DNA of 64,000 nucleotides from contig MTOU01000009.1 in NCBI GenBank assembly GCA_002011745.1, positions 71,447 through 135,446 on the forward strand, written 5' to 3'. The notes under the pieces are model-generated. The model was not told the origin of the DNA and searched no databases. It saw only the letters and a program-made list of their open reading frames with translations. The stretch is from Nitrospirae bacterium JdFR-85 (GTDB lineage Bacteria; Nitrospirota; Thermodesulfovibrionia; Thermodesulfovibrionales; JdFR-85). Both the position numbers and the translations under genes were made by a program. Below, in pieces: positions 9,814 to 43,634 of this stretch; position 1 is the first letter of the stretch, and each line of letters starts with the position of its first letter.

Positions 9814-9818
9814 AAGGA

Positions 9819-12592: not shown

Positions 12593-12765
12593 TATAATCT
12601 CCTTATATTTTAAGGTTTCTATTTTATTCTACCTAATCTATAATAAATTTCACATAACTCCTTTATTAATTAGATGAACAGAATGTCCCAAAGTGAGTAG
12701 ACATAAAGTCTGTTTAGGATAGGATTGTTGTAATAACTGCACACAAAGAGGACAATAAAACCAGA

Positions 12766-13662: not shown

Positions 13663-13770
13663 AGTACAGTTTCTTGTACCTACAGATATGAATATCTAAA
13701 AACTGTACTGTATCGAGACTAAATTAACACAATAAAATTTTACCATATAACTTCATTTTGGTTTTGGACT

Positions 13771-14955: not shown

Positions 14956-15026
14956 CTTTTACAATGCTCCTTACCGAAGGTCCGGCTTTCAAAAACTTCT
15001 CCTTGCATTGTGAGGTTCGGAGAATT

Positions 15027-30649: not shown

Positions 30650-31384
30650 ATGCCCAAACCAATAAAGAAGAAGGTGAGAAAGAAGACACTACCAGAAGAA
30701 GAGGTCTTAAATTTATATGAAATATGTATGGACTACTATGAAAGAAACAGGCGATTTGTTCATATTACGGCTATATCTATTTTAGTGGTGATATTACTAA
30801 TCATAGGAGGCATTTTTTATTATAAGAACTCCAAAAAACAGGCTCTTCTACTTGAGTACGAAGGCTATAAACTCTACCACTCCTTGTATCAAACAGAAAG
30901 CATTCCTGAGGAGAAGAGGTTTAAAGAGGCACTTCAGAAATTTGAAGCAGCCTATAAAAAGTCTCCCTCTGCAAGGCTACTTCTGTATATTGCGAACACT
31001 CAGTATAGTCTAAAACAGTATGATGATACAATGAGAACCCTTCAGAAATTTATAAAAAAATACTCTGACAACAAGGAATTGCTTCCTCTTGCATATTATA
31101 AAATGGCCCTTGTACAGATGAAAAACGGAAAAAATACTGAGGCTATTGAGACCCTCAAGAAGATATATCAGACCAGAGAGGCCTATCTTAAGGATCTGGC
31201 ACTTTATGAGATAGGAAGACTTCTTGAAGTTGAAGGGAAAACTGAGGAAGCAAAGGAATACTATACAAAGCTTGTGAAAGAATTCCCTGAATCTCCCTAT
31301 TCAAAGGTCGCGGAGGCAAAGGTAAAACTCAAAGAGGAAAAAAGAGAAACAAAGAAAGAAACTACTCAGGAGGAAGGTAAATAA
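30650..31384 (+). CDS. Membrane-anchored TPR-repeat protein (YfgM-like layout)
   Basis: N-terminal basic region plus one TM segment, followed by TPR-like repeats and a Lys/Glu-rich tail. Confidence 0.6.
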   Translation: MPKPIKKKVRKKTLPEEEVLNLYEICMDYYERNRRFVHITAISILVVILLIIGGIFYYKNSKKQALLLEYEGYKLYHSLYQTESIPEEKRFKEALQKFEAAYKKSPSARLLLYIANTQYSLKQYDDTMRTLQKFIKKYSDNKELLPLAYYKMALVQMKNGKNTEAIETLKKIYQTREAYLKDLALYEIGRLLEVEGKTEEAKEYYTKLVKEFPESPYSKVAEAKVKLKEEKRETKKETTQEEGK

Positions 31385-32516
31385 TCTTTCCTGGCCTTAG
31401 TCTCTTTGGGTTAACTCCTTTATTGAGTAAAAGGACGGATTTTACAGATACCCCATGTCTTTTAGCTATCTCGTAAATGGTATCTCCCTTCTTTATCACA
31501 TAAGGAACCCTGGGCATCCTTTCAGATGCAGATGCAGAGTTGAAACACTTTAGGAATTCTTCTTTTGTGCCCTCAGGTATCCTGAGCTCATAGGCTCTAA
31601 CATCAGGAGGCGTACACCATCTCTTTAACTCAGGATTCAGCTCTCTAATTACGCTTTTGGAGACACTACTGCATTTGGCAATAAAGGATACAGAGGCTGG
31701 CTTTGTTATTATCACCTTTTCATATTTTAAAGGAGGGTGGATATCCACATCATCCAATCCATATTTCTCAGGATTCGATGCTATTAGTCCGGCTGCAATG
31801 AAACGGGCCACATAATTTCTCGTCTCTCTTTTAAGATATCTTGTCTTTACAAGCTTCCAGTAATCGTCAGTCTTAACCCTTCTGACAGCCTTGTATATTT
31901 TCCCCTCTCCTGCATTATACGCAGCCAGTGCAAGAGGCCATGAACCAAACCTCTTGTACAGTGCCCTCAGATATTTGGCTGCAGCCCTTGTGGATTTTTC
32001 GGGGTCTCTCCTCTCATCAACCCAGTAGTTAATCTTCAATCCATACCTTTTTGCAGTGGCACTGATAAATTGCCAGGGACCTACTGCCCTTCGGTGAGAT
32101 TTTGCAGAGATGTCAAATCCACTCTCAATAAGGGGCAGATATACGAGTTCCTCAGGCAACCCTTCTTCTCTCAGTATCTCTTTAATTGTATCTATATATT
32201 TCCCTGAACGTTGAAGCCATCTTATAAAACTCTTCCGCTTCTTAGTGGTAAAGACCTTTATATGATAATCCACATATCTCTGGGCCACAGAACTACTCTC
32301 ATAAGATGCGAGAATTAGGTGGTTCTTTTTGAATTCTTCAAAAGTAGAAAGGGGAAGGTGCTGAGAGGTATTAACACTATTACAGTATTCAAGAGGTTCA
32401 TAATAATAGAAAGGAGTATCTCTCTCGTTGGTAAAGAGATAATGCTCAATCTCAATTAATGAACCTTCCACAGCAGAGTTCAATACCAGTACCAGAAACA
32501 GTATCAATACCCACAT
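31362..32516 (-). CDS. Lytic transglycosylase with a C-terminal LysM domain (MltD-like)
   Basis: Signal peptide, SLT catalytic region LIESGFD...AVGPWQF and AYNAGEG, and the LysM segment YVIKKGDTIYEIAKRHGVSV. Confidence 0.8.
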   Translation of the reverse strand: MWVLILFLVLVLNSAVEGSLIEIEHYLFTNERDTPFYYYEPLEYCNSVNTSQHLPLSTFEEFKKNHLILASYESSSVAQRYVDYHIKVFTTKKRKSFIRWLQRSGKYIDTIKEILREEGLPEELVYLPLIESGFDISAKSHRRAVGPWQFISATAKRYGLKINYWVDERRDPEKSTRAAAKYLRALYKRFGSWPLALAAYNAGEGKIYKAVRRVKTDDYWKLVKTRYLKRETRNYVARFIAAGLIASNPEKYGLDDVDIHPPLKYEKVIITKPASVSFIAKCSSVSKSVIRELNPELKRWCTPPDVRAYELRIPEGTKEEFLKCFNSASASERMPRVPYVIKKGDTIYEIAKRHGVSVKSVLLLNKGVNPKRLRPGKIIYLPPE

Positions 32517-32896
32517 GGTTAAATATATTAAGGATTTCTTTACTCTTTGTCAAACAGTCTCAAAAGCTTGAAAGGGTAATATGGAATATTTTAATCTTAA
32601 TAAGGAGAATTTAAAAACAAGAAAGGGAATCTGGTCTGGGCCTCCGAAAGGGAGAGAATAGGCTAAAAAAAGAACTCAGTAGTAGTGATAAACTGTATCT
32701 ATCCTTACTTTACCCTTCCATAGAAACTCCTCTACCAATAAAGGAACAACATTTAGATAAAATAAAAAAACTCTCCCTGAAACATGGTCTGTTCCCTCTG
32801 GTCTACAAGAGATTAAAGACCTGTTCAGACACTTCATATCTCAAAAGATTCCTTTCAGAAAACAAGAGCTTATACCTTAGGAGTGTAGTTTATTGT

Positions 32897-33793
32897 ATGA
32901 AAACAGAAAAAATAGAGCAGGAGCTTCTTGAACTCTTAAGAAACAACTCGGTTGATGCAGTAATAATCAAAGGCTCGAGCCTCGCAAAAAGGATTTACTC
33001 AGAGTATAGGGTCTCCTCAGATATAGATATACTCATAAGAGAAGAGGACATCTTTCCTGTGGACAAACTCCTTTGCAACAGGGGCTATATTCCAGACCCT
33101 ATACCCCTTAGGTACTATATTTACCGGTTTTCTCACACCATATACTACCATCCTGAAACAAAGATACCTATTGAGATACACTGGAATTTTGGCATACCTT
33201 ACTTCTTCAAACTATCCTCCCAACAGATATGGAGTAAAGTCTCTATAGACGATGATGGTCTCCTCTGGCTATCCCCTGAAGTTCAACTTGTGATGCTCCT
33301 TATTCATCATCATACCCATTGCTTCAGGGAGTTAAGAATACTTTTGGATATACTTTGGTCTCTGCATAAGTTCAGGGATATTATTGACTGGCATGCCTTT
33401 GCCAGTAGACTGAGAGAATATGGGCTTCTGAAAACAACTTTAATAACCCTTTGTCAGATATCTGAATTGTGGAAATCACAGACAGAAGAACTCAGGCCTC
33501 TTCTTATACTTAAGGAGGAGATACCAAAATACAGAAAAACCAGCGGACTTCTATTAAAGTATTTCATGATAACACCAGCGAATAACTTCAAGAACAATAT
33601 ATACAGAGACAAGATAATGAGTAGATTGGCACTTGATGGCCATATGAGAGCTTTTTCTTCATTCTTTAAAACTCTGTTTCCACCTCCCAAGGTGATAAAG
33701 GCACTCTATAATATAAAAAACAGCCTCCTTATCCCCTTTTATTATCCTGTTTTTATCTCTTGGAGGCTCAAAGACTGGATAAGGTTCTTTTAA
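32897..33793 (+). CDS. Uncharacterised nucleotidyltransferase (NTP_transf_5-like). The true 5' end probably lies upstream of the listed ATG.
   Basis: IIKGSSLAKRIYSEYRVSSDIDILI is a pol-beta-type NTase motif. The same frame is open back to 32615 and encodes family-like N-terminal sequence (LKHGLFPLVYKRL), but it has no canonical start. Confidence 0.65.
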   Translation: MKTEKIEQELLELLRNNSVDAVIIKGSSLAKRIYSEYRVSSDIDILIREEDIFPVDKLLCNRGYIPDPIPLRYYIYRFSHTIYYHPETKIPIEIHWNFGIPYFFKLSSQQIWSKVSIDDDGLLWLSPEVQLVMLLIHHHTHCFRELRILLDILWSLHKFRDIIDWHAFASRLREYGLLKTTLITLCQISELWKSQTEELRPLLILKEEIPKYRKTSGLLLKYFMITPANNFKNNIYRDKIMSRLALDGHMRAFSSFFKTLFPPPKVIKALYNIKNSLLIPFYYPVFISWRLKDWIRFF

Positions 33794-35526
33794 TGACCGG
33801 GGCAAACAGTCTTCAGGAGATAGGGTTTCTATTAAGACTGATAAAACCCTTATGGAAGAAAGGGATATTAGTACTCTGTCTCACAGTATGTACCACTCTG
33901 CTGAGTGCTTTAATGCCTTTGAGTATAAAGGTAATGATCGATTTTATTATTATGAAGGGTTCTACAGAGTCCATCGAATACTTCCTTAATACTTTAGGCT
34001 TGTCCTCTCTGGCACCTGTTGTATTAGGTATATTCACCTCTGTGGAGTATCTTATAGGAGGTATACTCGTTATAGCAGCCCTGGCTGGTATAATGATAAT
34101 TGCACAACAATACTTAGTCGCATCCTTTCAACACAGAGCAGTGTTTCAGATACAGAGACAGTTATTTGAACATGTCCTAAGGTTTCCACTTTCTTTTTTC
34201 AGAAACACAGACACTGGTTACATGATGGCGAGGATTTCAGAGGATATTCAGATTATCCAGTCATTCTTCTCTGAAATCATCCCTTATATGGCAGGAAGAA
34301 TAGTAAACATAGGAGCTGTACTCATAATTCTCGGATTTCTAAATCTGAAGCTGACAGTTCTAATCCTTTTATTAGTGCCTTTGTATCTAATCCTGAGTAG
34401 CCTTCTGTCCACCAGACTCAGAAATGTAAGCTACGAGGAGAGGGAGAGGTATGCCACTGTATTGAAGGGCTTTAAAGAAGTCTTATCAGGCGTAGAGACT
34501 GTAAAGGCATATACAGCAGAGTCATCAGAAGTAGCAAAAGTGGCAGATGATATAAATAGGGCCCTTACCACAAGGAAGAGACGCATTATTTTTACTACCC
34601 TCTCTGTTAACTCAATGAGAATATTTCAACTGATTCTCGGTCTTGCCATTATGTTTATAGGATTCTATGAAATAAAAGACAACAGAATGACAGTGGGGGA
34701 TTATGCAGCTTTTGTATATTATATCTTTTATATCTCTGGTTCTGTTTCACAACTTGCGGTCTTCCACATGATGCTTCAACCTATCATGGCATCTGCTTCA
34801 CGAATAAGAGAACTCTTTGAACTCTTTCCAGAAGACACAGATGGAATCATTTTGAAAGATCCAAAAGGAGAGATAATCTTCAAGAATGTCACATTCTCCT
34901 ATGTTCCTGATAAAGAGGTGTTAAGAGATATAGACTTCAGAATAAATCCTTCAGAAACAGTGGTTATATCAGGGCCTACAGGTTCTGGTAAGACCACTCT
35001 TGTAAACCTGTTATTAAAGTTTTATACTCCAGACAAGGGAGATATCCTTATTGATGGATACAGTATTGAAAGGCTTCATACTACATGGTTGAGAGAACAA
35101 ATAGGAATTCTCTCTCAAGATGTGTTTCTCTTTAATGATACAGTGAAAAATAATATAAAATATGGAAGGATGGAGGCTACAGAAGAGGAGATTATAGAGG
35201 CAGCCCAAATGGCAGGCATTCATGAGGAAGTCCTGGCCATGCCCGAAGGCTACAACACCATAGTGGGAGACAGGGGAGTAAGACTCTCTATGGGACAACG
35301 TCAGAGGATAGCACTTGCAAGGGTATTCCTAAGAAACCCGAGGATCCTGATTCTTGATGAACCTACTGCATCAGTGGACCAGAAGACAGAAGAGACTCTT
35401 AAAGAGGCTTTCAAGAAACTTTTAAAATCCAGGACAGCCATAATTATCACCCATCGACCTTCTCTTATGGAAATGGCAAACAGAATATTTGAATTAAAGG
35501 ATGGAAGACTGAAAGAGGTGAAATAA
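33793..35526 (+). CDS. ABC exporter, fused permease/ATPase (MsbA/bacteriocin-exporter type, no C39 peptidase domain)
   Basis: The start ATG overlaps the upstream stop (TAATG). It has a 6-TM N-terminal domain, Walker A GPTGSGKTT, signature LSMGQRQR and Walker B ILILDEPT. Confidence 0.85.
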   Translation: MTGANSLQEIGFLLRLIKPLWKKGILVLCLTVCTTLLSALMPLSIKVMIDFIIMKGSTESIEYFLNTLGLSSLAPVVLGIFTSVEYLIGGILVIAALAGIMIIAQQYLVASFQHRAVFQIQRQLFEHVLRFPLSFFRNTDTGYMMARISEDIQIIQSFFSEIIPYMAGRIVNIGAVLIILGFLNLKLTVLILLLVPLYLILSSLLSTRLRNVSYEERERYATVLKGFKEVLSGVETVKAYTAESSEVAKVADDINRALTTRKRRIIFTTLSVNSMRIFQLILGLAIMFIGFYEIKDNRMTVGDYAAFVYYIFYISGSVSQLAVFHMMLQPIMASASRIRELFELFPEDTDGIILKDPKGEIIFKNVTFSYVPDKEVLRDIDFRINPSETVVISGPTGSGKTTLVNLLLKFYTPDKGDILIDGYSIERLHTTWLREQIGILSQDVFLFNDTVKNNIKYGRMEATEEEIIEAAQMAGIHEEVLAMPEGYNTIVGDRGVRLSMGQRQRIALARVFLRNPRILILDEPTASVDQKTEETLKEAFKKLLKSRTAIIITHRPSLMEMANRIFELKDGRLKEVK

Positions 35527-35532
35527 AAACTC

Positions 35533-36414
35533 ATGCAAAGGGAATACTTCTCAATAGCCAATATCACCATTGTATTGATATATCCTGAAGCTCCTTATAA
35601 CTTGTCCCTTAGTCCTGCCATGGAGGAGTTTAGAATCAAAAAGGCAGAGACCCCTGATATCTCTTTTACTGTTGATACAGACTCTGCCTACCCTTCTCTG
35701 AATACCTACAAAAGGATTTTCACTACCCACCCTTCAGGACCTTGGAGTATCTATAGTCGACCTGAAGGAGGTTATGTGATAGTATTTCAGAATCTACAAA
35801 AGGAAAAAAATCCGCATAAGGTAGTTATTGTAGATGAGAATTTCTGTAAATTTCATATCTACAATAAGATTACCCCTGATAACCAACTTGTCCCCTTAGA
35901 ACACCCCTTTGATGAGCTTGCTCTGTCAGGATACCTTAATCTTAACAGAATCGGAATCATATTACACTCTGCCTCTGTCTGTATCAATGGCAGGGGCTAT
36001 CTCTTCTCAGGAACCTCAGGCTCGGGTAAATCCACTATCTCAGAACTCTTCCTGAGAGATAAGGATTCTTTAGTATTAACTGACGAGAGAGTTATTATCA
36101 GGGAGCATAGAGGGAAACTCTGGGCATTTGGTACGCCCTGGCATGGTACAGCCAAGGTACATAAAAATAGCGGAGCCCCTATAGAAGGAATATTTTTTAT
36201 AAAACATGGAGGTGAAAATAAGGCGACTTACCTTTCAAAAACCGATGCAATCAACCGATTAATGGTAAGGTGCTTCCCTACTTTCTGGAATCGTTCTGGA
36301 ATGGAGTTTGTGCTGGACTTCTGTATAAGGATTGCCTCTGAGATAGCATGCTATGAACTTGAATTCCTTCCTGAGTTCTCAGTTGTTAGGTATATAAAGG
36401 ACTCCTTTGTTTAA
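35533..36414 (+). CDS. HPr-kinase-C-like P-loop protein (putative peptide kinase)
   Basis: Walker A GTSGSGKST within a ...HSASVCINGRGYLFSGTSGSGKST... context, which resembles the HprK C-terminal domain and the HprK-related kinases of RiPP clusters. It starts 7 nt after the ABC gene. Confidence 0.6.
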   Translation: MQREYFSIANITIVLIYPEAPYNLSLSPAMEEFRIKKAETPDISFTVDTDSAYPSLNTYKRIFTTHPSGPWSIYSRPEGGYVIVFQNLQKEKNPHKVVIVDENFCKFHIYNKITPDNQLVPLEHPFDELALSGYLNLNRIGIILHSASVCINGRGYLFSGTSGSGKSTISELFLRDKDSLVLTDERVIIREHRGKLWAFGTPWHGTAKVHKNSGAPIEGIFFIKHGGENKATYLSKTDAINRLMVRCFPTFWNRSGMEFVLDFCIRIASEIACYELEFLPEFSVVRYIKDSFV

Positions 36415-36417
36415 GGT

Positions 36418-37512
36418 TTAAAAGTTATTATTAAGAAAAGGAAATGTCTCTGCCCTTGTATGAGCAACCCTGCAGAGATACTCCACCTTCTTATCCATCC
36501 TTCCATACTCAAGAAGGCTCCAACCCACACATTGTCCACACAGATTAAGCAGTGGACACTCATCACACTCTAAGGAAAAATCCTTTTTAGTGAAAATAAG
36601 CTCTTTTATATCTGTCTCCCATATATTCTTAAGAGGTTTCTCTCTGAGAGACACATCCATGTTACACAACATAGAGCATGGCATTACTTTCCCATCAGGT
36701 GCTATATGAAGGGAAAACTTTCCTGCACCACATCCTATCAGTCTGTCAGAGCCAGAAACTACTTTTCCTACTAACTTCTCACAGAACTCTTCATATTCCT
36801 GTAGTCTTTCTGGAAAATCCAAATCAAGCCTTACCACATCTTTTATAGAAATACGATACTTCTCTGGAGAAGAGTACTTTCTGTCATCTATCCGTTTATG
36901 AAGAAGTGGATCAAACCTGAAATGACAGCCCAGCTCCTTTGAGAGTCTATGAAGCATCTTGATCTCATGTTGATTTATAGTTAGGACCATAGCCTTGGTC
37001 TTAACCTTGATACCAGCCTTGAGTAGTCTGTTCAGCCCCTCCCAGTAGTTCCTATAACTGCCTTTCACCCGTGTAACCCTCTCATAGGTCTCCTCTGTAG
37101 CACCATACATGGTCACTTCAACAACAAATGGAGGATATGCTTTGAAAAGCTCCACAATCTCATCATCCACAAGTGTGGCATTTGTAAAGACTGTAATAAG
37201 AAAGCCGTGCCTTTTTGCAGAGAGATATATCTCTTTAAAATCTTTTCTGAGAAGAGGCTCCCCTCCTGTAAGAAGTAACCAGAGGGTGCCCATATGTTGA
37301 AGTTCATCAAACAGCCTCTCTATTTCTTCCATGTTCAATTCTTTCTGTTCTGCCTCTTTATCGGAGGCTGGCAGGTTACAGTAGCAGTGGACACATCTGT
37401 TGTTGCACCTGTAGGTTAGTTCAAGGGTAACATTTACTGGAATCCTTTTGTCTTGAGAAAAGGCCTTCTGGTGTAGTCTGAAACTAAACTCCTGATAATC
37501 AATAGTTTTCAT
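36418..37512 (-). CDS. Radical SAM / SPASM-domain peptide maturase
   Basis: CNNRCVHC (Cx3Cx2C) near the N-terminus. C-terminal SPASM-like Cys pattern CGAG...DGKVMPC ... CDECPLLNLCGQC ... C. The start is set at ATG 37512 (GAGG 6 nt upstream), overlapping the PqqD stop by 14 nt. Confidence 0.85.
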   Translation of the reverse strand: MKTIDYQEFSFRLHQKAFSQDKRIPVNVTLELTYRCNNRCVHCYCNLPASDKEAEQKELNMEEIERLFDELQHMGTLWLLLTGGEPLLRKDFKEIYLSAKRHGFLITVFTNATLVDDEIVELFKAYPPFVVEVTMYGATEETYERVTRVKGSYRNYWEGLNRLLKAGIKVKTKAMVLTINQHEIKMLHRLSKELGCHFRFDPLLHKRIDDRKYSSPEKYRISIKDVVRLDLDFPERLQEYEEFCEKLVGKVVSGSDRLIGCGAGKFSLHIAPDGKVMPCSMLCNMDVSLREKPLKNIWETDIKELIFTKKDFSLECDECPLLNLCGQCVGWSLLEYGRMDKKVEYLCRVAHTRAETFPFLNNNF

Positions 37513-37816
37513 CCCTAACCTCAATAAGACCAGCTTCCCAGAGTTCCTGCAAAAATTCGATCACCTCTTCTTCAATCTGTTCAGGTGGGTCCTCATACTC
37601 ATTTTGAAGCTCTTCAATTATACTCTCCACTGATCTATTTCCATCTATCCGTTCCCAAATTTCTGCACCAGTATGATTGAGATTGAATATATGCTCTACA
37701 TCCATTGAAGAGCTATACATAGGGACAAGAATATATTCATCTTCAATTTTTCTAAAAATGACTCCTTCCCTTCGGAGGGGAATACTACGGAGGTCTATGA
37801 ACCTACTGTCCGACAC
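37499..37816 (-). CDS. PqqD-family protein (putative RiPP recognition element, RRE)
   Basis: 105 aa, with ...ILVPM...IFNLNHTGAEIWERIDGNRSVESIIEEL...EEVIEFLQEL..GLI typical of PqqD. It has a GTG start that overlaps the precursor ORF 3' end by 22 nt. Confidence 0.7.
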   Translation of the reverse strand: MSDSRFIDLRSIPLRREGVIFRKIEDEYILVPMYSSSMDVEHIFNLNHTGAEIWERIDGNRSVESIIEELQNEYEDPPEQIEEEVIEFLQELWEAGLIEVRDENY

Positions 37817-37959
37817 TCAAAAAACCAGAAACATCGATTGCCAAACCAGGCCCGAATAATTCCACCAATAGCCTTACAATTCTGTAACACCGCCTCTTCA
37901 GGCACAAGTCTAACCTTTTCACATCTGGGTTTCTCCCATTTTTTTGTCTTGTTGGCCAT
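37795..37959 (-). CDS. Candidate RiPP precursor peptide, 54 aa
   Basis: The internal ATG at 37959 is preceded by AAGAGGTGG. The peptide is MANKTKKWEKPRCEKVRLVPEEAVLQNCKAIGGIIRAWFGNRCFWFFECRTVGS. It is the first gene of the precursor-PqqD-rSAM operon. Confidence 0.55.
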   Translation of the reverse strand: MANKTKKWEKPRCEKVRLVPEEAVLQNCKAIGGIIRAWFGNRCFWFFECRTVGS

Positions 37960-37990
37960 AGCCACCTCTTTTGGGCAAAGATTATTTATA

Positions 37991-38019
37991 ATAATAAAAA
38001 AATCCAGCAATTATTTCAA
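37991..38019 (-). promoter_or_regulatory. Sigma70-type promoter candidate for the precursor-PqqD-rSAM operon
   Basis: The minus strand reads TTGAAA (38019..38014), a 17-nt spacer, then TATTAT (37996..37991), about 30 nt upstream of the precursor ATG. Confidence 0.45.
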
Positions 38020-38026
38020 TACCAAA

Positions 38027-38482
38027 ATGGATCTGGTGCTAAACAGTAGAGACTTTCTGGAAGTAGCAGAATCCATCCTTAAGAAAGGAAAAGGATTCTC
38101 TTTCAAGGCTATTGGTCATAGTATGGCTCCATTTATTAAAGATGGAGACATTGTGACAGTAAGACCCATCACAAGACCACTAAAAGTGGGTGATGTAGTG
38201 CTTCTGAAGACTAATGAAGGCAAACCACTACTGCATAGAGTAAAAAAAATAGACAAAGAATGGATTATTACAAAAGGGGATGCATCCTATACAGATGACC
38301 CTCCTTTACCAAAAGAGAATATACTCGCCTTAGCTGTAAATAATAAAGGAAAGGGTTATAACTTCCATTTTAGATACCCCTTTGGATACATAATAACCCT
38401 TATACCCTACTGGATTAGACAAAACAGATTATTAACAAAGGTGTGTAAACCGATTCTTTTCTTGCTGAGACTTATAATCTGA
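38027..38482 (+). CDS. SipW/archaeal-type signal peptidase I homologue (S26B-like)
   Basis: The start is set at ATG 38027, because the longer listed ORF would overlap the precursor gene in antisense. Motifs GHSMAPFIKDGDIV (Ser), LLHRV (His) and ITKGDASYTDD are present. There is no N-terminal TM segment, but there is a hydrophobic C-terminal tail. Confidence 0.65.
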   Translation: MDLVLNSRDFLEVAESILKKGKGFSFKAIGHSMAPFIKDGDIVTVRPITRPLKVGDVVLLKTNEGKPLLHRVKKIDKEWIITKGDASYTDDPPLPKENILALAVNNKGKGYNFHFRYPFGYIITLIPYWIRQNRLLTKVCKPILFLLRLII

Positions 38483-38534: not shown

Positions 38535-41306
38535 ATGGCAAAAGACTTTAAGGATACCCTTAATCTTCCACAGACTGCTTTCCCAATGAAGGCTAATCTC
38601 ACGAAGAGAGAACCAGAAATTATAAGGTTCTGGCAGGAAAGAAGTGTGTATAGAAAGCTCCAGGAAAAGAATAAAAATGGAAAAACAATGATACTGCATG
38701 ATGGACCTCCCTATGCAAATGGGCATATTCATATGGGCCATGTGCTGAACAAAGTTCTGAAGGATATCATTGTTAAGTACTGGAGTATGAAAGGTTATTA
38801 TGCACCCTTTGTACCTGGATGGGACTGCCATGGATTGCCCATAGAACTGCAGGTAGATAAAAAACTGGGAACAAAGAAGAATGAGACTCCTTTACTTAAA
38901 AAACGACAACTCTGTAGAGAATATGCAGATAAATTCGTAAATATTCAGCGAGATGAATTTATCCGGCTGGGCATCTTTGGAGACTGGCAGAGACCCTATC
39001 TTACGATGGATTATGAGTATGAGGCATCAATAGCAGAGGAGTTTCTGAATTTTCTTCGTAAAGGATATGTCTACCGTGGTAGAAAACCTGTCCACTGGTG
39101 CCCTTCATGTGTGACCGCCCTTGCTGAGGCAGAGGTGGAGTACGCTGAAAAGGTATCCCCATCGATATATGTTAAATTCAGACTAAAGAACTCTTTTGAT
39201 AAAGATAGGGAAACATATTTTATAATCTGGACAACCACACCATGGACACTTCCTGCCAATCTTGCCCTTGCAGTAAATCCTGAGGTCTTATACTCACTCA
39301 TAGACACAGGAGATGCCCTTTATATTGTGGCCAGTGCTTTGGTCGAAGCAGTGGCTGAGAAGACAGGCCTCAAGGGAGATGTTCTTAGAGAACTCAGAGG
39401 CATAGAACTTGAAGGATTAAAGGCTGAACATCCCTTTATAAATAGAGACTCTGTAGTAATCACAGGAGACTTTGTGAGCACTATTGAGGGAACAGGAGTG
39501 GTACATATAGCCCCTGGACATGGTGAAGAAGACTATCTGGCAGGACTGAAGAATGGATTGGAGATTTATGCACCAGTAGATGATTATGGAAGATTCACGA
39601 TTGAGGATTATGGACTTTATGGTTTAAATGTTTTTAAAGCTAATGAAAAGATCATAGAGGTACTACAGGATAAGGGGGCTCTCCTGAACAGCAGCCAGAT
39701 CACCCATTCATACCCACACTGCTGGCGGTGCAAGAAACCTGTTATCTTTAGAGCTACTGAGCAATGGTTTATTTCTATTGAACATGACAATTTAAGGCAC
39801 AGGTGTCTCAAGGAGATTGAACGGGTGAGATGGATACCTCACTGGGGCAAAGAGAGAATAAAAGGAATGATGTCTAACAGACCTGACTGGTGTATCTCAA
39901 GACAGAGGGCATGGGGAGTCCCTATAACTGTGATAATCTGTAGTAATTGTGGAGAAATTGTTCAAGATGAGAGTTTTTTTAAGGAAGTCATAGAAAAGTT
40001 CAGAAACAAAGGAGCAGATATCTGGTTTGAGCTCGAACCTAAGGACTTCCTGCCTCAGCATTACAGATGTAGATGTGGTTCCAGTGAATTCAAAAAAGAG
40101 ACGGATATCCTGGATGTCTGGTTCGACTCAGGAGTGAGTCATGCAGCAGTACTTGAAAGGGATGAAAGACTTCATTGGCCCTCATATATGTACCTTGAGG
40201 GTAGCGATCAACACAGGGGATGGTTTCAGAGTTCACTCATTGCCTCTGTGGGCACAAGAGACAGAGCACCTTACGATGTAGTGCTTACCCATGGCTTTGT
40301 AGTTGATGGAGAAGGCAAAAAGATGTCAAAGTCTCTTGGGAATGTCATTTCTCCTGAAGAGATCATTAAGGACCATGGTGCAGAAATTTTGAGGCTATGG
40401 GTCTCGGCAGAGGACTACAGGAATGATGTGAGGCTCTCCAAAGAAATCATAAACAGGCTTGTGGAGGCATATCGTAAGATCAGAAACACCTGTAGATTTC
40501 TACTTGGTAATCTCTACGACTTTGACCATGGAGATTATAGGCCCGAGCTTCTTGAAATAGACAGATGGGCAATGCACAGACTCCATAGCCTGATTAAACG
40601 GGTTTCAGAGGCTTACGAGAGATACGATTTCCACGAGGTATTTCATCGAATCTATAATTTCTGTGTGGTTGATCTGAGTGCCTTCTATCTCGATATTCTG
40701 AAAGACAGATTATATACCTTTGCCCCAGACTCACCTGAGAGAAGGGCCTCCCAATGGACCATATATCAGATTCTCAACAACCTGGTAAGACTAATGGCAC
40801 CTGTACTGTCCTTTACAGCGGAGGAGATCTGGCAACATCTGCCCAAACCTAATAAGACAGAGAGTGTTTTTCTTACAGACTTCCCTGTGGTAGATGAGCA
40901 GTTTATTGATAAAGATCTCGAGAAGAGGTGGAATTATCTAATAGAGATCAGAAATGTGGTAAACAGGGCATTAGAGATAAAGAGGACAGAAAAGTATATA
41001 GGAAACTCTCTGGAGGCAAAGGTAAAGATATATGCTTCAGGAGAATATCTAAATCTTCTAAATGAATATAAAGATTTTCTACCATCACTCTTTATAGTGT
41101 CTCAGGTAGAAGTGTATACAGACGCTGAGGCTCCTGCTGGAACAACCACAGATGATGAAATCCCGGTTTCAGTGATTGTAGAGAGGGCAGAAGGGCAGAA
41201 GTGTGCCCGATGTTGGAACTGGTCACCTACAGTAGGACAGTACTCTGATGAGCCTGAAGTCTGTAGCAGATGCTACAGGGTATTAAAGGTCCTGAATGAA
41301 AACTAA
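38535..41306 (+). CDS. ileS: Isoleucine--tRNA ligase
   Basis: 923 aa with the HIGH motif (GHIHMGH), KMSKS (KKMSKSLGN) and a C-terminal zinc-binding CxxC...CxxC. Confidence 0.95.
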   Translation: MAKDFKDTLNLPQTAFPMKANLTKREPEIIRFWQERSVYRKLQEKNKNGKTMILHDGPPYANGHIHMGHVLNKVLKDIIVKYWSMKGYYAPFVPGWDCHGLPIELQVDKKLGTKKNETPLLKKRQLCREYADKFVNIQRDEFIRLGIFGDWQRPYLTMDYEYEASIAEEFLNFLRKGYVYRGRKPVHWCPSCVTALAEAEVEYAEKVSPSIYVKFRLKNSFDKDRETYFIIWTTTPWTLPANLALAVNPEVLYSLIDTGDALYIVASALVEAVAEKTGLKGDVLRELRGIELEGLKAEHPFINRDSVVITGDFVSTIEGTGVVHIAPGHGEEDYLAGLKNGLEIYAPVDDYGRFTIEDYGLYGLNVFKANEKIIEVLQDKGALLNSSQITHSYPHCWRCKKPVIFRATEQWFISIEHDNLRHRCLKEIERVRWIPHWGKERIKGMMSNRPDWCISRQRAWGVPITVIICSNCGEIVQDESFFKEVIEKFRNKGADIWFELEPKDFLPQHYRCRCGSSEFKKETDILDVWFDSGVSHAAVLERDERLHWPSYMYLEGSDQHRGWFQSSLIASVGTRDRAPYDVVLTHGFVVDGEGKKMSKSLGNVISPEEIIKDHGAEILRLWVSAEDYRNDVRLSKEIINRLVEAYRKIRNTCRFLLGNLYDFDHGDYRPELLEIDRWAMHRLHSLIKRVSEAYERYDFHEVFHRIYNFCVVDLSAFYLDILKDRLYTFAPDSPERRASQWTIYQILNNLVRLMAPVLSFTAEEIWQHLPKPNKTESVFLTDFPVVDEQFIDKDLEKRWNYLIEIRNVVNRALEIKRTEKYIGNSLEAKVKIYASGEYLNLLNEYKDFLPSLFIVSQVEVYTDAEAPAGTTTDDEIPVSVIVERAEGQKCARCWNWSPTVGQYSDEPEVCSRCYRVLKVLNEN

Positions 41307-41751
41307 GATTTCTATTTCCTTTCTGATAGGCCTTCTGATTCTCTCAGACCAACTAACAAAATTCCTTGTTATTAAATTTTTAGATCCCTATCAACCCTTA
41401 AAAATTCTCCCCTTTTTTCAACTTGTAAATGTCAAAAATAAAGGGGCTGCATTCGGATTATTTCAGTCACTTGGCAATACCACATTTATATTTATAAGCA
41501 TTATGGCTATCCTATTCATTCTTGTTATACTCTTTAAAACAAAAGAAGATAGAATATCTCTATCCTTGATCCTGGCTGGAGCAATAGGAAACCTTATTGA
41601 CAGGCTAAGATATGGATATGTAGTGGATTTTATTGACCTTCATATTGGAAGATATCACTGGCCTGCCTTCAATATAGCTGACTCTGCTCTAAGTATAGGA
41701 ATCTTTCTTCTATTTCTAAAAATTATTTTCCCTTCCAAGGAAAAAACTTAA
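41296..41751 (+). CDS. lspA: Lipoprotein signal peptidase (signal peptidase II)
   Basis: NKGAAFG, VVDFID and FNIADSA motifs with 4 TM segments. It overlaps the ileS 3' end. Confidence 0.9.
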   Translation: MKTKISISFLIGLLILSDQLTKFLVIKFLDPYQPLKILPFFQLVNVKNKGAAFGLFQSLGNTTFIFISIMAILFILVILFKTKEDRISLSLILAGAIGNLIDRLRYGYVVDFIDLHIGRYHWPAFNIADSALSIGIFLLFLKIIFPSKEKT

Positions 41752-41996
41752 AATTTCTTTATCTGCTTAATTTGTTAACCTTACCTTGTCTCGTAAGACT
41801 TCACTAACCTATCTACTGTTGCAGTATTTATCCTCAATAACAACCCCTTTAGCCTTTCAGTGAAAAAATCTTTGAGGATATTCTTTGTAGAATTAGTGGC
41901 TATCAAAGCTTTGTCCTTCCTTCTGAAAACTACCTTCTCTACGTTCTCAAGTAAATACTCTATGCAATGACAGTTTATTTGAGGAATGCGGTAAAA

Positions 41997-42026
41997 TTGA
42001 CAGAAAACGGTTGTTAATATTAGAAT
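41997..42026 (+). promoter_or_regulatory. Sigma70-type promoter candidate for the tRNA-Gln/tRNA-Glu pair
   Basis: TTGACA (41997-42002), an 18-nt spacer, then TAGAAT (42021-42026). tRNA-Gln begins 12 nt downstream. Confidence 0.5.
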
Positions 42027-42037
42027 ATTAATGTTAT

Positions 42038-42111
42038 TGGGGAGTCGTCTAATGGCAGGACGGCAGACTCTGGATCTGCTTGTAGAGGTTCGAATCCTCT
42101 CTCCCCAGCCA
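42038..42111 (+). tRNA. tRNA-Gln (anticodon CUG), CCA encoded
   Basis: The cloverleaf folds by hand. Acceptor TGGGGAG/CTCCCCA, anticodon stem GCAGA/TCTGC with loop CTCTGGA, T-arm AGAGG-TTCGAAT-CCTCT, then G-CCA. Confidence 0.9.
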
Positions 42112-42120
42112 TTCTGTTGC

Positions 42121-42196
42121 GGTCCCATCGTCTAGTGGCCCAGGACACCGGCCTCTCACGTCGGAAACAGGGGTTCGAGTCCCCTTGGGACCGCCA
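42121..42196 (+). tRNA. tRNA-Glu (anticodon CUC), CCA encoded
   Basis: Acceptor GGTCCCA/TGGGACC, anticodon stem CCGGC/GTCGG with loop CTCTCAC, T-arm AGGGG-TTCGAGT-CCCCT, then G-CCA. Confidence 0.9.
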
Positions 42197-42212
42197 AAGC
42201 CTTTACCATGTA

Positions 42213-42809
42213 TTAAACTTCACCTTTTATTCTGTTTACTGAAAAATGTTTTATGATAACAGGAAATAACATATACAAATACATAAATAATTCAAAATTC
42301 TCTTCCCTTACCTCAATATCCCGAAGAATCTGTTTAGTTACATTCCAGACAAGACTCTGTGGTAAATTATTCAGATCAGATATGATCTCAGGATATTGGA
42401 TAAAAAGCTTTTGATATTCATTAAGATAATTATGAAATAAACTCCTATCCATTTGGTTGCTTTCCTTAGCCATAGCCTTGAATATCTCGAATATTCTATT
42501 AGTAATACTTTCAATATACAATGTACGGACCTTTTCACCAAAACGATCAAAAAGAACTCTATCATGAATATGTATAAAAAGAGGAATTAGAGTTAAAAAT
42601 ATCTGTAATTCTTTTGCGGGATCAAGTGATACTTCTTTCTTCAGCTCTTTTATCCACTGCTCAGTAGCAACAAAAATCTCCCCCACCATCTGCTCAACCT
42701 CTTCTCTAAATTTATTCTGATCAGAAATCATTTTCTTAAGATTATCAGAATCATAGTTTTTTCGTTTCCCTTTTGCCAATCTAAAAATACTTAAAAACCA
42801 TCTCATCAT
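42213..42809 (-). CDS. Hypothetical protein (alpha-helical, AT-rich gene)
   Basis: 198-aa ORF with no recognisable motif, lying immediately next to the tRNA pair. Confidence 0.45.
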   Translation of the reverse strand: MMRWFLSIFRLAKGKRKNYDSDNLKKMISDQNKFREEVEQMVGEIFVATEQWIKELKKEVSLDPAKELQIFLTLIPLFIHIHDRVLFDRFGEKVRTLYIESITNRIFEIFKAMAKESNQMDRSLFHNYLNEYQKLFIQYPEIISDLNNLPQSLVWNVTKQILRDIEVREENFELFMYLYMLFPVIIKHFSVNRIKGEV

Positions 42810-42851
42810 TTACACCATTAGAAACCTACAGTTACGAAGTACAAATTTTTA

Positions 42852-43256
42852 TTATTTACTATCCGAACTGGGTTTGACAAATGGTTTGATGTCCAGAACA
42901 GGTGTTCCATCTAACATATCAATACCCTTTACATGAATCACATTTCCCTTGATATCTGTAACCTTTAAAACTGACAACCCTATTGGATTGGGACGTATTG
43001 GTGAGCAGGTACTAAAGACACCTGTCTCCTTATTTGTATGCGGAGGCTTCTGTATAAGATATTCTTTTCTGAATTCTGGACTCTTATGAAAATGAAATAT
43101 TACCACAATATCCTGACCTACATTTATATCCCTTAATCCCTTCTGATACCTCTCATCTATTATAATTGAACCTTCCACATCTGAGACTGTCCAGTGACGT
43201 GGTATCTCTTTGGCATCTGTCTTGATGAAACCTATGGGCTGATAGTAGATCTGCAT
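42852..43256 (-). CDS. TsaA/TrmO-family (UPF0066) tRNA methyltransferase-like protein
   Basis: 134 aa with PIGFIKT...PRHW, RPNPIGLSV and LDGTPVLDIKPF, which are family-typical. Confidence 0.75.
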   Translation of the reverse strand: MQIYYQPIGFIKTDAKEIPRHWTVSDVEGSIIIDERYQKGLRDINVGQDIVVIFHFHKSPEFRKEYLIQKPPHTNKETGVFSTCSPIRPNPIGLSVLKVTDIKGNVIHVKGIDMLDGTPVLDIKPFVKPSSDSK

Positions 43257-43293
43257 CTTGGGGTATTATAAAATAATTGGGGGTGGAATTTAA

Positions 43294-43323
43294 TTGATTT
43301 TTATACCTACTTTGTGTCATAAT
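43294..43323 (+). promoter_or_regulatory. Promoter candidate upstream of the rpsU leader
   Basis: TTGATT (43294-43299), an 18-nt spacer, then CATAAT (43318-43323) preceded by TGt (extended -10). Confidence 0.35.
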
Positions 43324-43361
43324 TAAAATCACAAAAGCCAGAAGTTTTTGTTGGAACCAAT

Positions 43362-43399
43362 AAGCCGCAAAAACTTTTGAGTTTGCGGCTTTATTTTTT
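43362..43399 (+). terminator. Intrinsic terminator (10-bp stem plus U-tract) located upstream of rpsU
   Basis: AAGCCGCAAA (43362-43371) pairs perfectly with TTTGCGGCTT (43382-43391) and is followed by TATTTTTT. There is no plus-strand gene upstream of it. Confidence 0.6.
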
Positions 43400-43427
43400 A
43401 ATAAAATGTTGAAAGGAACAAAGATAA

Positions 43428-43634
43428 TTGGAGATTCAGGTAAATGGTAGAAATATTGACAAGGCCCTAAAGCTTCTTAAACGTGAAGTAGAGAGGGAGG
43501 GGCTTTTTAAGGAATTAAAAAATAGAAGATTCTATGAAAAGCCCTCGGTGAAGAAGAGAAGGAAACAGAGGGAAGCAAAAAAGAGAAGAATTAAGGCTGC
43601 CCGAATAAAAAGGAATAACAGACATAGCAGATAG
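43428..43634 (+). CDS. rpsU: 30S ribosomal protein S21
   Basis: 68 aa, TTG start, with IDKALKLLKREVEREGLFKELKNRRFYEKPS and a basic tail. Confidence 0.9.
   Translation: MEIQVNGRNIDKALKLLKREVEREGLFKELKNRRFYEKPSVKKRRKQREAKKRRIKAARIKRNNRHSR

Follow-up and report, generated by a model that had tools for sequence, protein, structure and literature searches.

What class of peptide does the cassette next to ileS produce? In the window, the whole stretch of 64,000 nucleotides analysed here, seven adjacent ORFs (32897-38482) are located between an SLT/LysM transglycosylase gene and ileS, based on the ORF list and domain searches. The first-pass annotation read them as a coherent RiPP-type peptide-modification cassette unlike any characterised RiPP class. 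Co-occurrence in 85 loci supports the cassette, while the implied novelty of the combination is outdated, as five of the seven genes correspond to the LPP toolkit (PMC13381572). The locus is probably a RiPP BGC in which an LPP/paeninodin-type toolkit is joined with a radical SAM (rSAM)/SPASM maturase.

Organization of the locus

The ORF coordinates place the genes where they were originally described. The features are as follows.

31362-32516: SLT/LysM transglycosylase gene, one flank of the cassette
32615-32896, plus strand: upstream in-frame extension of the nucleotidyltransferase (NTase), with homology to the first ~95 aa of full-length NTP_transf_5 proteins
32897-33793, plus strand: NTP_transf_5 NTase (PsmN/LppN-type), accessory tailoring enzyme (PF14907, 106 bits)
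33793-35526, plus strand: MsbA-like ABC exporter, fused TMD-NBD, no C39 peptidase domain (TIGR02203, ABC_membrane, ABC_tran)
35533-36414, plus strand: ScmC-like/HprK-like P-loop kinase, predicted precursor Ser kinase (weak ScmC/HprK_rel matches, Walker A, fold)
36418-37512, minus strand: rSAM/SPASM peptide maturase (Radical_SAM 98 bits, SPASM 27.5 bits)
37499-37816, minus strand: discrete PqqD-type RiPP recognition element (RRE) (PF05402, 75 bits)
37795-37959, minus strand: 54-aa precursor peptide (conserved peptide family)
37991-38019, minus strand: promoter-like site TTGAAA-17-TATTAT (consensus match only)
38027-38482, plus strand: SipW/archaeal-type signal-peptidase-I-like (S24/S26) protein, predicted RRE-dependent leader peptidase (Peptidase_S24, TIGR02228)
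38535-41306: ileS, the other flank

The overlaps reported earlier, 22 nt between the peptide and PqqD ORFs and 14 nt between PqqD and rSAM, are correct. A strong SD, AGAGGTGG, is located 5 nt 5' of the peptide ATG. The promoter-like site is 32 nt 5' of this ATG, within the 67-nt divergent intergenic region; the count of such sites in the region does not exceed the shuffled expectation. There is an alternative TTG start at 37524 for the rSAM gene. The ABC ATG overlaps the NTase stop (TAATG) in the L003 gene call, with an alternative TTG at 33760.

The NTase frame is open and homologous for ~94 further codons upstream of its ATG. Including it lengthens the Pfam match, which covers model positions 61-247 at 106 bits without it and 3-247 at 123 bits with it, and the homology in alignment A4 reaches almost to the stop at 32612-32614. 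No ATG, GTG or TTG is seen in 32615-32896. It is possible that the full-length NTase uses a non-canonical start, CTG at 32636; otherwise the start has been lost.

The GC content is 0.392 in the cluster versus 0.423 in the window, ~1.6 sd under same-size windows, 3.8% of which are equally low. The AT-richness that was suspected is thus marginal, and the GC3 shows nothing distinctive. The hint of foreign DNA is weak.

The precursor peptide family

The precursor is MANKTKKWEKPRCEKVRLVPEEAVLQNCKAIGGIIRAWFGNRCFWFFECRTVGS. Its leader would span approximately residues 1-25/27, and the core begins at C28. The core cysteines are residues 28, 43 and 49, and the C-terminal residue is Ser54. No second ORF of this precursor family is present elsewhere in the 64,000-nt window.

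At least 66 distinct family peptides share a leader motif, have three Cys in the core and end in Ser. The motif is [Y/W]xKPx4VxLx2EEAVLx2CK, followed by a variable core. Y/W at -20 and P at -17 are each seen in 66/68 peptides, and L at -3 in 62/68. The Cys count is exactly three in 62 of the 66 precursors, and 42/66 have five residues past the last Cys. The C-terminus is Ser in 62/66 and Thr in 3/66 (Ser/Thr in 65/66), 'GS' is present in 47/66, and the C-terminal C-x3-G-S is nearly invariant in the family. Tandem precursors with differing cores are found at some loci (L005, L049 and L064). Judged from sequence, the small ORF encodes a real precursor that is conserved. A small ORF upstream of PqqD had been expected in homologous loci; the ORF is conserved, but its usual place is downstream of rSAM.

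Conservation of the gene set

Co-occurrence was counted among 85 non-redundant homologous loci, all metagenome- or MAG-derived, using for each gene the contigs long enough to show it. The rSAM gene is next to the PqqD gene in 64/72 loci and to the kinase gene in 48/51, and a conserved small peptide gene lies beside it in 61/73. The peptidase gene is present at 33/39 loci. The expected co-occurrence in other genomes is strong. The NTase is found in 9/28 family loci with enough flank and the ABC exporter in 6/24. These two are accessory members, missing from most family loci, while the window locus and its closest relatives have a dedicated exporter.

Because the gene set recurs in dozens of loci with rSAM identity of 38-74%, it is far beyond a chance neighbourhood. 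The same set is recovered with distant kinases as the starting point, and there is a natural kinase-peptidase fusion (P0387), a Rosetta stone. The hosts are Nitrospirota, Desulfobacterota-type MAGs, Schekmanbacteria and archaeal MAGs, a wide bacterial and archaeal spread. The cassettes are frequently sited in exopolysaccharide/capsule loci, which hints at a cell-surface or biofilm-related role. Several others lie among housekeeping genes.

The predicted modification enzymes

The earlier domain calls for the NTase, ABC exporter, rSAM/SPASM, PqqD and peptidase proteins were all recovered; the kinase gives weak ScmC/HprK_rel matches with an intact Walker A.

In the rSAM family alignment, C40, C44 and C47 (CX3CX2C) and eight C-terminal Cys (C248, C265, C283, C320, C323, C329, C332 and C351) are invariant. 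The C-terminal pattern, CX12GX4C ... CX2CX5CX2C ... C, is the full SPASM set, in agreement with the first reading. That reading also named a best score against a non-peptide family as an argument against a peptide maturase. The highest NCBIfam bit scores are indeed to the non-peptide AhbD/AhbC, with AhbD at the top (115 bits; cutoff 500), but these matches cover the N-terminal rSAM core alone, and the full-length and structure matches are to peptide maturases. The best full-length NCBIfam match is MftC (104.8 bits, residues 22-330; cutoff 265); the peptide maturases StsB, AlbA and PapB are further full-length matches. MftC performs decarboxylation and C-C coupling, not thioether formation. The best solved-structure matches are SkfB (2e-20, 76 bits), PqqE (2e-14), CteB (2e-11, 46 bits) and SuiB. 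The cross-link type is not readable from the sequence itself; with unconserved acceptor positions and SkfB and CteB as the closest enzymes of solved structure, we infer sactionine-type Cys-S-to-C-alpha thioethers as the likeliest chemistry.

The kinase-like protein scores weakly on the NCBIfam profiles ScmC (26.7 bits), HprK_rel_B (24.6) and HprK_rel_A (20.5), and its precomputed Pfam assignment is PF27840 ScmC. The Walker A GxSGxGK(S/T) with K166, together with D184, is invariant in the family alignment, and the Walker A and a TDE(R) motif align with GKS...ADDRV of HPrK/P. The kinase-family profile matches HPrK/P, and the fold of the AF2 model (pLDDT 93.9) matches PEPCK and HPrK/P. PadeK, ThcoK and PsmK phosphorylate the C-terminal Ser of linear precursors (PMC9266682, PMC6993621), while the phospho-acceptor in LPP is core Ser3 (PMC13381572). 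Here the equivalent position, 20 residues after the Y versus 19 in LPP, is an invariant Cys. The kinase target could therefore differ from the proposed Ser54.

The NTase residues G26, D42 and D44, the Pol-beta G...DxD motif, are invariant. PsmN decorates the phosphate with hexose (PMC9266682, PMC6993621), and LppN had no activity in the published LPP system (PMC13381572). The exporter matches TIGR02203 MsbA (363 bits), ABC_membrane (160) and ABC_tran (115).

The peptidase scores 48.7 bits on TIGR02228 (cutoff 51.85) and 38 bits on Peptidase_S24. G30-x-S32-M-x-P35, H70-R71 and G84-D85 do not vary among 41 homologues, which upholds the SipW-type assignment with its Ser, His and Asp. No N-terminal TM segment is found in this protein. 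S32/H70/D85 are parallel to S29/H68/D93 of LppS (PMC13381572).

Relationship with known systems and alternative readings

The LPP family was defined experimentally with the Paenibacillus alginolyticus lpp cluster (Popov et al., Nat Commun 2026; PMC13381572). Its conserved core is a SipW-like peptidase, a stand-alone RRE, a kinase that is HprK-like, NTP_transf_5 and an MsbA-like exporter, with no cyclase; SpI leader cleavage is RRE-dependent, the context is a capsule locus, and LPPs are described as Bacillota-restricted (PMC13381572). The earlier statement that the kinase/NTP_transf_5 pair had been characterised only for lasso peptides is superseded, as the pair belongs to this core. The models in the LPP supplement annotation (NTP_transf_5, PqqD, TIGR02228, TIGR02203 and TIGR04249/04352/04355; PMC13381572) are those matched by the window proteins. 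The five-gene toolkit, the [Y/W]xxP leader, the lack of a lasso cyclase and frequent polysaccharide-locus siting are common to both. Could this be an ordinary LPP cluster, with the rSAM gene an unrelated or optional neighbour? The common genes and leader motif would fit, but such a reading is very unlikely: the two overlaps couple rSAM translationally to PqqD and the peptide, and in practically all loci, also those reached from distant kinases, rSAM occurs together with the kinase, RRE and peptidase. The precursors here are also shorter (about 50-60 aa), with three conserved Cys, an invariant Cys instead of Ser at core position 3, and the conserved Ser at the C-terminus. They lack the LPP logo HQxIxFETxxS and whatever the LPP leader logo has beyond [Y/W]xxP. 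Neither NTase nor exporter is a required member, the taxa are non-Bacillota, and no radical SAM entry is present in the text and supplements of the LPP paper (PMC13381572).

Paeninodin and pseudomycoidin clusters have an HprK-like kinase acting on a linear precursor with a strictly conserved C-terminal Ser (PMC9266682, PMC6993621), NTP_transf-type phosphate decoration, a discrete RRE, a WxxP leader and an ABC exporter; the corresponding kinase and NTase roles here are predicted. A degenerate or split lasso cluster with its cyclase elsewhere would explain this pair, the lasso-like WxxP leader and the PqqD score of 50.7 bits on the Bacillota lasso B1 model (lasso_PqqD_Bac). It is extremely unlikely, since no asparagine-synthetase-like macrolactam cyclase or transglutaminase-like B2 Cys protease is found within +/-8-10 kb of the family cassette in Pfam-annotated contexts, as first noted for this locus. 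The single weak Transglut_core3 match, in L011, belongs to a neighbouring second cassette, and the cores have no conserved ring-forming Asp/Glu at positions 7-9. Here a SipW-like Ser peptidase is predicted for leader removal, and the class-defining modification would be that of rSAM/SPASM.

SynChlorMet (Scm) is a bioinformatically defined cassette (NCBIfam TIGR04248-TIGR04251). None of the curated NCBIfam systems (SynChlorMet, GeoRSP, HPr-rel-A, mycofactocin, PQQ, sacti/ranthipeptide maturases) matched at cutoff. Membership in the first three was tested directly and is highly improbable, slightly more so than an ordinary LPP cluster. The architecture is alike, with PqqD, rSAM/SPASM, an ScmC-like protein (PF27840), a SipW-like peptidase and an ABC exporter, but the scores are far below the cutoffs: ScmC 26.7/125, ScmD 42/100, ScmE 91.9/400, ScmF 69.2/400, GeoRSP rSAM 67/400 and HprK_rel_A/B 20-25/200. 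Scm has two rSAM/SPASM proteins (ScmE and ScmF), and the window has one. L093 has a true Scm cassette, for which all the cutoffs are passed (106, 546, 534 and 202 bits), and directly beside it a family cassette that fails them. As both occur side by side in one genome, Scm and this family are paralogous and distinct. Upstream of its ScmD, that Scm cassette has a candidate precursor whose leader carries YxSP and whose core is rich in Gly and Cys.

The sactipeptide and ranthipeptide maturases (SkfB, CteB, AlbA, StsB and PapB) likewise have an rSAM core with a SPASM/twitch domain and act on Cys-containing cores, with RRE guidance as predicted here. In this family the RRE stands alone as its own protein instead of being fused at the N-terminus, and the window rSAM is far under the cutoff of every named maturase model. 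To our knowledge, these classes have no kinase, NTase or SipW-like peptidase.

Mycofactocin (MftA/B/C) suggests another reading, in which rSAM processes only the C-terminal C-x3-G-S and the peptidase frees a small fragment, phosphorylated or glycosylated, for intracellular use as a mycofactocin- or PQQ-like cofactor or small molecule. A short peptide with a nearly invariant C-terminus, five residues after the last Cys in many precursors, a discrete RRE as with MftB and PqqD, and MftC as the best full-length match are consistent with it. So are the absence of an exporter from about three quarters of the loci, the cassettes among housekeeping genes (L094, L095) and the wide spread over bacteria and archaea. 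This reading is nevertheless unlikely. The MftC score is far under its cutoff, there is no MftD, MftE or MftF, redox enzymes or dehydrogenases do not turn up repeatedly as partners, and both the kinase and the peptidase are LPP-type. Hypervariable cores on a fixed three-Cys frame, with two different precursors at some loci, are typical of RiPPs and not of cofactors. The window and its closest relatives have a dedicated exporter, and in LPP this toolkit makes a peptide product of 45 aa (PMC13381572).

Proposed pathway

For the preferred reading, an LPP/paeninodin-type toolkit with an rSAM/SPASM maturase, the most likely product is a cross-linked (probably thioether), C-terminally phosphorylated peptide. 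The precursor would be translated from the peptide-PqqD-rSAM operon, whose tight coupling is visible in the overlaps. The PqqD RRE would bind the W/Y-x-K-P...V-x-L segment of the leader, given the conserved [Y/W]xxP and the precedents of LppB and lasso B1. The rSAM/SPASM enzyme may then cross-link the core via some or all of C28, C43 and C49. The fold and intact catalytic motifs of the ScmC/HprK-like kinase, together with residue conservation and the precedents of PadeK, PsmK and LppK, suggest that it would (poly)phosphorylate the nearly invariant Ser54. In loci that have it, the NTP_transf_5 enzyme might decorate the phosphate further, like PsmN. With the RRE presenting the substrate, the SipW-like Ser/His/Asp peptidase is predicted from LppS to cut off the leader between L25 and C28, and the ABC transporter would export the product.

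New here are the obligatory rSAM/SPASM enzyme, a precursor that has three Cys and ends in Ser, and an occurrence beyond Bacillota. The pairing of the LPP toolkit's kinase, signal peptidase, adapter and exporter with what would be a cross-linking radical SAM enzyme has yet to be characterised.

Organization of the Gene Cluster

The cluster is bordered by an SLT/LysM lytic transglycosylase gene on one side and by ileS on the other.

Genes of the cluster (window coordinates)
32897-33793, +, NTP_transf_5 nucleotidyltransferase (NTase; Pfam/NCBIfam)
33793 (ATG) to 35526, +, ABC exporter; the start overlaps the NTase stop
35533-36414, +, P-loop (ScmC/HprK-like kinase) protein
36418-37512, -, rSAM/SPASM protein; 14-nt overlap with PqqD
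37499-37816, -, PqqD; 22-nt overlap with the peptide ORF
37795-37959, -, 54-aa peptide ORF with a strong Shine-Dalgarno sequence
38027-38482, +, S24-family peptidase, divergent from the peptide gene and 67 nt apart from it

The gene content is as described in the first-pass annotation, and the domains are upheld by Pfam and NCBIfam. The peptide, PqqD and rSAM genes form a minus-strand operon of overlapping genes, which converges on the plus-strand NTase, ABC and P-loop genes. The AT-richness reported earlier for the cluster is only marginal (GC 0.392 versus 0.423, ~1.6 sd) and GC3 is ordinary; with these values, horizontal transfer is unsupported by composition. Promoter and terminator scans of the cluster region gave counts not above shuffled expectation, and an Rfam search found no RNA element within the cluster. 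Within the scanned region, AT content peaks at 41000-43500, where GC is 0.34-0.36, below that of the cluster. It surrounds tRNA-Gln(CTG) and tRNA-Glu(CTC), located at 42038-42196 (+) with 10 nt between them.

Co-Occurrence and Distribution of the Gene Set

In addition to annotated contexts, 80 metagenomic loci were collected, and iterated HMMs were then built from the window's own proteins. The counts are based on 85 non-redundant loci, and the denominators are the contigs with enough flanking DNA for the given gene. The rSAM gene is found in every family locus, and in the window it is translationally coupled to PqqD. Beside it are seen PqqD in 64/72 loci, the ScmC/HprK-like protein in 48/51, the S24 peptidase in 33/39 and a small peptide in 61/73. 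NTP_transf_5 (9/28) and the window-type ABC exporter (6/24) are found in fewer loci. The commonest order is PqqD, rSAM, peptide, kinase and peptidase, with or without NTase and ABC. The rearranged layout of the window is common to its nearest relatives, L096 and L097, with 69% and 63% rSAM identity, respectively. Searches from distant kinases (35-48% identity) led again to PqqD, rSAM and S24, with or without NTase and ABC.

The rSAM family is large and unnamed, with 2,181 clusters at E <= 1e-20. It is represented in Nitrospirota, deltaproteobacterial MAGs and Syntrophaceae, and in MAGs labelled Woesearchaeota and Euryarchaeota. Against 1.84 billion cluster representatives, a ScmC-like profile for the kinase-like family retrieves 1,456 at E <= 1e-30. 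None of the searched databases gives any family protein a name. When genome contigs were searched with the rSAM protein by itself, the matches listed held nothing beyond an Alteromonas rSAM of no relevance.

Several loci depart from the common arrangement. In four loci (L068, L079, L063 and L087), the order is ABC, rSAM (~40 aa longer) and S24, with neither a separate PqqD gene nor a detectable nearby precursor; here the rSAM protein may carry a fused RRE, or the peptide may be encoded elsewhere. In L096 (3381-5483), a Nitrospirae MAG locus and the closest named relative, the kinase-like gene is broken into 97-aa and 111-aa pieces and the ABC gene is shortened to 400 aa, which suggests either a decaying cassette or assembly errors. 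On a groundwater deltaproteobacterial contig (L007/L008/L009, 5900-13150), the cassette is interspersed with toxin-antitoxin pairs (PIN, ParE, two MNT/HepT and DUF2442), which stretch it to ~9 kb.

Exopolysaccharide genes (Poly_export, Wzz/GNVR tyrosine-kinase type, Wzy_C, glycosyltransferases, Bac_transf and BBP2_2) flank the cassette in 5 of ~10 independent contexts: L005 13065-17077, L007 from 17071, L010 167-5150, L011 3841-7143 and L093 from 20972. An exclusive tie of the cassette to polysaccharide loci is ruled out, as such genes do not flank it in the window, L094, L095, L097 or L098.

The Precursor Peptide Family

Precursors were recovered from the fetched loci by regex and then by HMM. 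This yielded 68 distinct peptides, 66 of them complete. Counted back from the invariant Cys of "CK", the leader has Y (59) or W (7) at -20, K at -18 (57), P at -17 (66/68), V/I at -12, L at -10 (62) and E-E-A-V-L at -7 to -3, with L at -3 in 62/68. In 47/68, position -1 holds a small residue (G/A). Together these positions give the family logo [Y/W]xKPx4VxLx2EEAVLx2CK.

Core sequences vary and contain many Gly, Ser and Thr residues. Exactly three Cys are present in 62/66 complete peptides, with spacings of mostly 12-14 residues (C1-C2) and 4-7 residues (C2-C3), and five residues follow the last Cys in 42/66. The C-terminal residue is Ser in 62/66 and Thr in 3/66, and 47/66 end with "GS". The sole peptide without a terminal Ser/Thr is that of L047, a single case; the 1.8 kb of downstream sequence available for this locus contains no kinase gene. 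Several loci encode two precursors with differing cores. The window peptide fits this frame with C28, C43, C49 and Ser54, but its leader is of the W type and its core unusually rich in aromatic residues. A large-database search with the 54-aa peptide matched only itself, as significance is out of reach for such short queries. In L098, L068, L079 and L087, the surroundings of the cassette yielded no precursor.

Nitrospirota-type leaders of the family, including that of the window (37936-37947), contain WxKP, whereas co-resident Scm-type and second-cassette peptides contain YxSP or YSKP (L093; L011 9218-9424). This split echoes the Trp-versus-Tyr RRE discrimination reported for co-resident paeninodin and LPP systems (PMC13381572).

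Predicted Maturation Enzymes and Exporter

The CX3CX2C motif of the rSAM protein (C40/44/47) is invariant across the family, as is the full SPASM Cys set, which comprises CX12GX4C ... CX2CX5CX2C ... C and an additional Cys. Among solved structures, the nearest belong to the peptide modifiers SkfB, PqqE, CteB and SuiB. The top NCBIfam scores are nominally to AhbD and AhbC; they cover the N-terminal rSAM core only and are far under cutoff. Full-length alignments are obtained with MftC, StsB, AlbA and PapB. A CX3CX2C plus SPASM/twitch rSAM enzyme and a Cys-containing core are shared by the window system with sactipeptides and ranthipeptides.

Window proteins on NCBIfam models (score/cutoff)
rSAM, named maturases: AlbA 78.9/850; SkfB 64.6/300; StsB 93.2/625; PapB 72.9/340; MftC 104.8/265; PqqE 84.4/381
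GeoRSP (TIGR04302/04303): rSAM 67.1/400; geo_PqqD 31.7/100
HPr-rel-A (TIGR04352/04353/04355): HprK_rel_B 24.6/200; HprK_rel_A 20.5/200; PqqD_rel_X 22.3/35
SynChlorMet: ScmC 26.7/125; ScmD 42/100; ScmE 91.9/400; ScmF 69.2/400
PqqD: PqqD 51.9/46; lasso_PqqD_Bac 50.7 bits/80

The rSAM protein reaches no named maturase cutoff, while the PqqD protein passes the PqqD model. No pqqA/B/C or mftD/E/F-type neighbours are present around the cluster. This NCBIfam comparison, proposed with the original description, finds no curated system that fits the cluster.

In the kinase-like protein, GxSGxGK(S/T) and a later TDE(R)V are invariant and align with GKS...ADDRV of HPrK/P. Its AlphaFold model (pLDDT 93.9) matches PEPCK over the whole length and HPrK/P over the catalytic domain, and the protein has weak matches to TIGR04249, TIGR04355 and TIGR04352. 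The peptidase has GxS32MxP, H70-R and G-D85, invariant in 41 homologues, and no N-terminal TM segment. These residues give it the Ser-His-Asp arrangement of SipW/Sec11. It scores 48.7 bits on TIGR02228, just below the cutoff of 51.85, and 38 bits on Peptidase_S24. Two natural fusions involve the ScmC-like kinase: the database protein P0387 (463 aa) joins it to an S24/S26 peptidase domain, and P0253 (652 aa) to a SAM-methyltransferase.

The NTase keeps the motif G26...D42xD44 and scores 106-123 bits on PF14907. Its profile matched nothing significant among PDB sequences, and the reported resemblance between PsmN, the pseudomycoidin NTase, and ANT(2'') was not reproduced by sequence. The NTase frame is open for 94 codons 5' of the annotated ATG (32615-32896, +). 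These codons show homology to the N-terminal part of full-length NTP_transf_5 proteins, and with them the Pfam match begins at model position 3 instead of 61. ATG, GTG and TTG are all absent from the stretch, which leaves as possible starts just CTG (32636; a weak SD lies 7 nt upstream of it) and ATA codons. Either a rare start codon is used, or the start has been lost and the product is a truncated protein of 298 aa. The ABC exporter is MsbA-like (TIGR02203, 363 bits) and has no C39 peptidase domain.

Comparison with SynChlorMet and Lasso Peptides

SynChlorMet (TIGR04248-TIGR04251) has two rSAM/SPASM proteins, whereas the window has one. On L093, a Nitrospirota-type MAG contig, a bona fide Scm cassette (12306-16584) directly adjoins a family cassette (9127-12180). 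The Scm cassette contains ScmD, ScmE, ScmF and ScmC, all above NCBIfam cutoffs, with a SipW-like peptidase and an ABC transporter, whereas for the family cassette proteins these models give just 30-80 bits. As a decisive control, these side-by-side cassettes with contrasting scores show that the family is distinct from SynChlorMet and is its sister. The SynChlorMet model description is not known to name a precursor. A 72-aa ORF just upstream of ScmD in L093 (MTPDEKKKKKPRYESPVVLRFDIPEGVGAQCSPGSG...CHSGTGGRD) is a candidate precursor of the Scm cassette. A literature search returned nothing relevant on SynChlorMet, ScmC, PF14907, or HprK/HPr kinase with radical SAM/SPASM.

Paeninodin and pseudomycoidin are phosphorylated lasso peptides. 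Their linear precursors end in a strictly conserved Ser, which is the target of an HprK-like kinase, and the resulting phosphate receives a hexose from PsmN (PMC9266682, PMC6993621). A lasso-like leader motif, W8-E-K-P11, is present in the window peptide (Y/W in 66/68 and P in 66/68 of the family), and RRE binding is predicted. As first described, the cluster lacks a lasso cyclase and B2: the Asn-synthetase-like cyclase and the transglutaminase-like protease are missing both there and within +/-8-10 kb of family cassettes in Pfam-annotated contexts.

Comparison with Linear Polyphosphorylated Peptides

The closest characterised system is that of linear polyphosphorylated peptides (LPP), whose core consists of a SipW-like signal peptidase I, a stand-alone RRE, an HprK-like kinase, NTP_transf_5 and an MsbA-like exporter (PMC13381572). 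The kinase LppK polyphosphorylates a Ser, and the leader is removed by LppS, an RRE-dependent peptidase whose catalytic residues are S29/H68/D93. Phosphorylation has to come before this cleavage in LPP. The leader motif starts with YxxPxV (full logo YxxPxVLxHQxIxFETxxS), and the phospho-acceptor Ser is at core position 3. The clusters lie within capsular-polysaccharide loci, and LPPs are described as Bacillota-restricted. The supplement labels the genes with NTP_transf_5, PqqD, TIGR02228, TIGR02203 and TIGR04249/04352/04355, and neither the text nor the supplements consulted here mention radical SAM enzymes (PMC13381572).

The window proteins match the same models that name the LPP genes. A SipW-like Ser/His/Asp peptidase accompanies a discrete RRE in both (S32/H70/D85 in the window, S29/H68/D93 in LppS). 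The window also has an HprK-like kinase, judged by weak hits to the models that label LPP kinases, invariant motifs and an HPrK/P- and PEPCK-like fold. NTP_transf_5 and the MsbA-like exporter are present in the window too, although they are optional in the family and core in LPP. Exopolysaccharide flanks, reported for LPP clusters as well, are seen in part of the family loci. On the other hand, only [Y/W]xxP of the LPP leader logo is common to the family, an invariant Cys occupies the position equivalent to LPP Ser3, and the family has its conserved Ser at the C-terminus. Besides, the window family has a further class-defining enzyme, rSAM/SPASM, whereas the LPP product is linear.

The cluster had been called a RiPP of unclassified type. 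That it is a genuine RiPP cluster is upheld, and no named system matches it. However, with five of its seven genes corresponding to the published LPP set, it can no longer be called unclassifiable.

Proposed Biosynthetic Pathway

The window encodes an LPP-type toolkit joined to an rSAM/SPASM maturase and a precursor with three Cys and a C-terminal Ser. From the observed gene content, coupling, conservation and catalytic motifs, we infer the following chemical steps. The RRE would bind the [W/Y]xKP leader, and the rSAM enzyme would cross-link the core via the conserved Cys. A thioether is the most likely linkage, given the lack of conserved acceptor residues and the fact that sactisynthases are the nearest enzymes. 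The kinase would (poly)phosphorylate Ser54, and the NTase could optionally decorate the phosphate. The SipW-like peptidase would remove the leader between L25 and C28 in an RRE-dependent manner, and the ABC transporter would export the product. The calculated monoisotopic mass of the precursor is 6329.24 Da (6198.20 Da lacking Met1), and that of the core would be 3123.52 Da for a cut before C28 or 3365.62 Da for one after L25. The acceptor Ser of LPP is 19 residues after the leader Tyr (PMC13381572), whereas in the family the invariant Cys falls 20 positions after Tyr/Trp, and therefore the kinase target in the window system is presumptive.

The conserved C-terminus could instead be the source of a small molecule, as in a mycofactocin-like pathway. 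This is the main rival to a modified, exported peptide, and it is improbable: the cores are variable, precursors occur in tandem, and exporters are present.

Implications

The cluster is of interest because the family is large, sharply defined and uncharacterised, because it extends the LPP toolkit outside Bacillota, and because it would add an rSAM cross-linking step. RiPPs modified by rSAM enzymes are not known to have an HprK-like kinase of their own or a leader protease resembling a signal peptidase, and a scaffold both cross-linked and phosphorylated would be new to RiPP chemistry. The LPP toolkit would then be a mobile module beyond Bacillota, partnered with a lasso cyclase, with none, or with rSAM. 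The precursor signature [Y/W]xKP...EEAVLxxCK...C...C...GS would be easily mined for a family of >1,000 divergent members.

Tentatively, the cluster may be regarded as the first example of a RiPP class that is large and still uncharacterised, with an rSAM/SPASM cross-linked three-Cys core, an HprK-like kinase acting on the C-terminal Ser and a SipW-like leader protease, in anaerobic sediment and groundwater bacteria (Nitrospirota, Desulfobacterota-like and Schekmanbacteria) and archaeal MAGs. If so, the phosphorylation toolkit of LPP and paeninodin would be an ancient, modular one that is not peculiar to Bacillota, and its products, which are often encoded in exopolysaccharide loci, would act at the cell surface or in biofilms. 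The recurrent link to polysaccharide export, common to LPPs, may help in approaching the role of such phosphorylated peptides.
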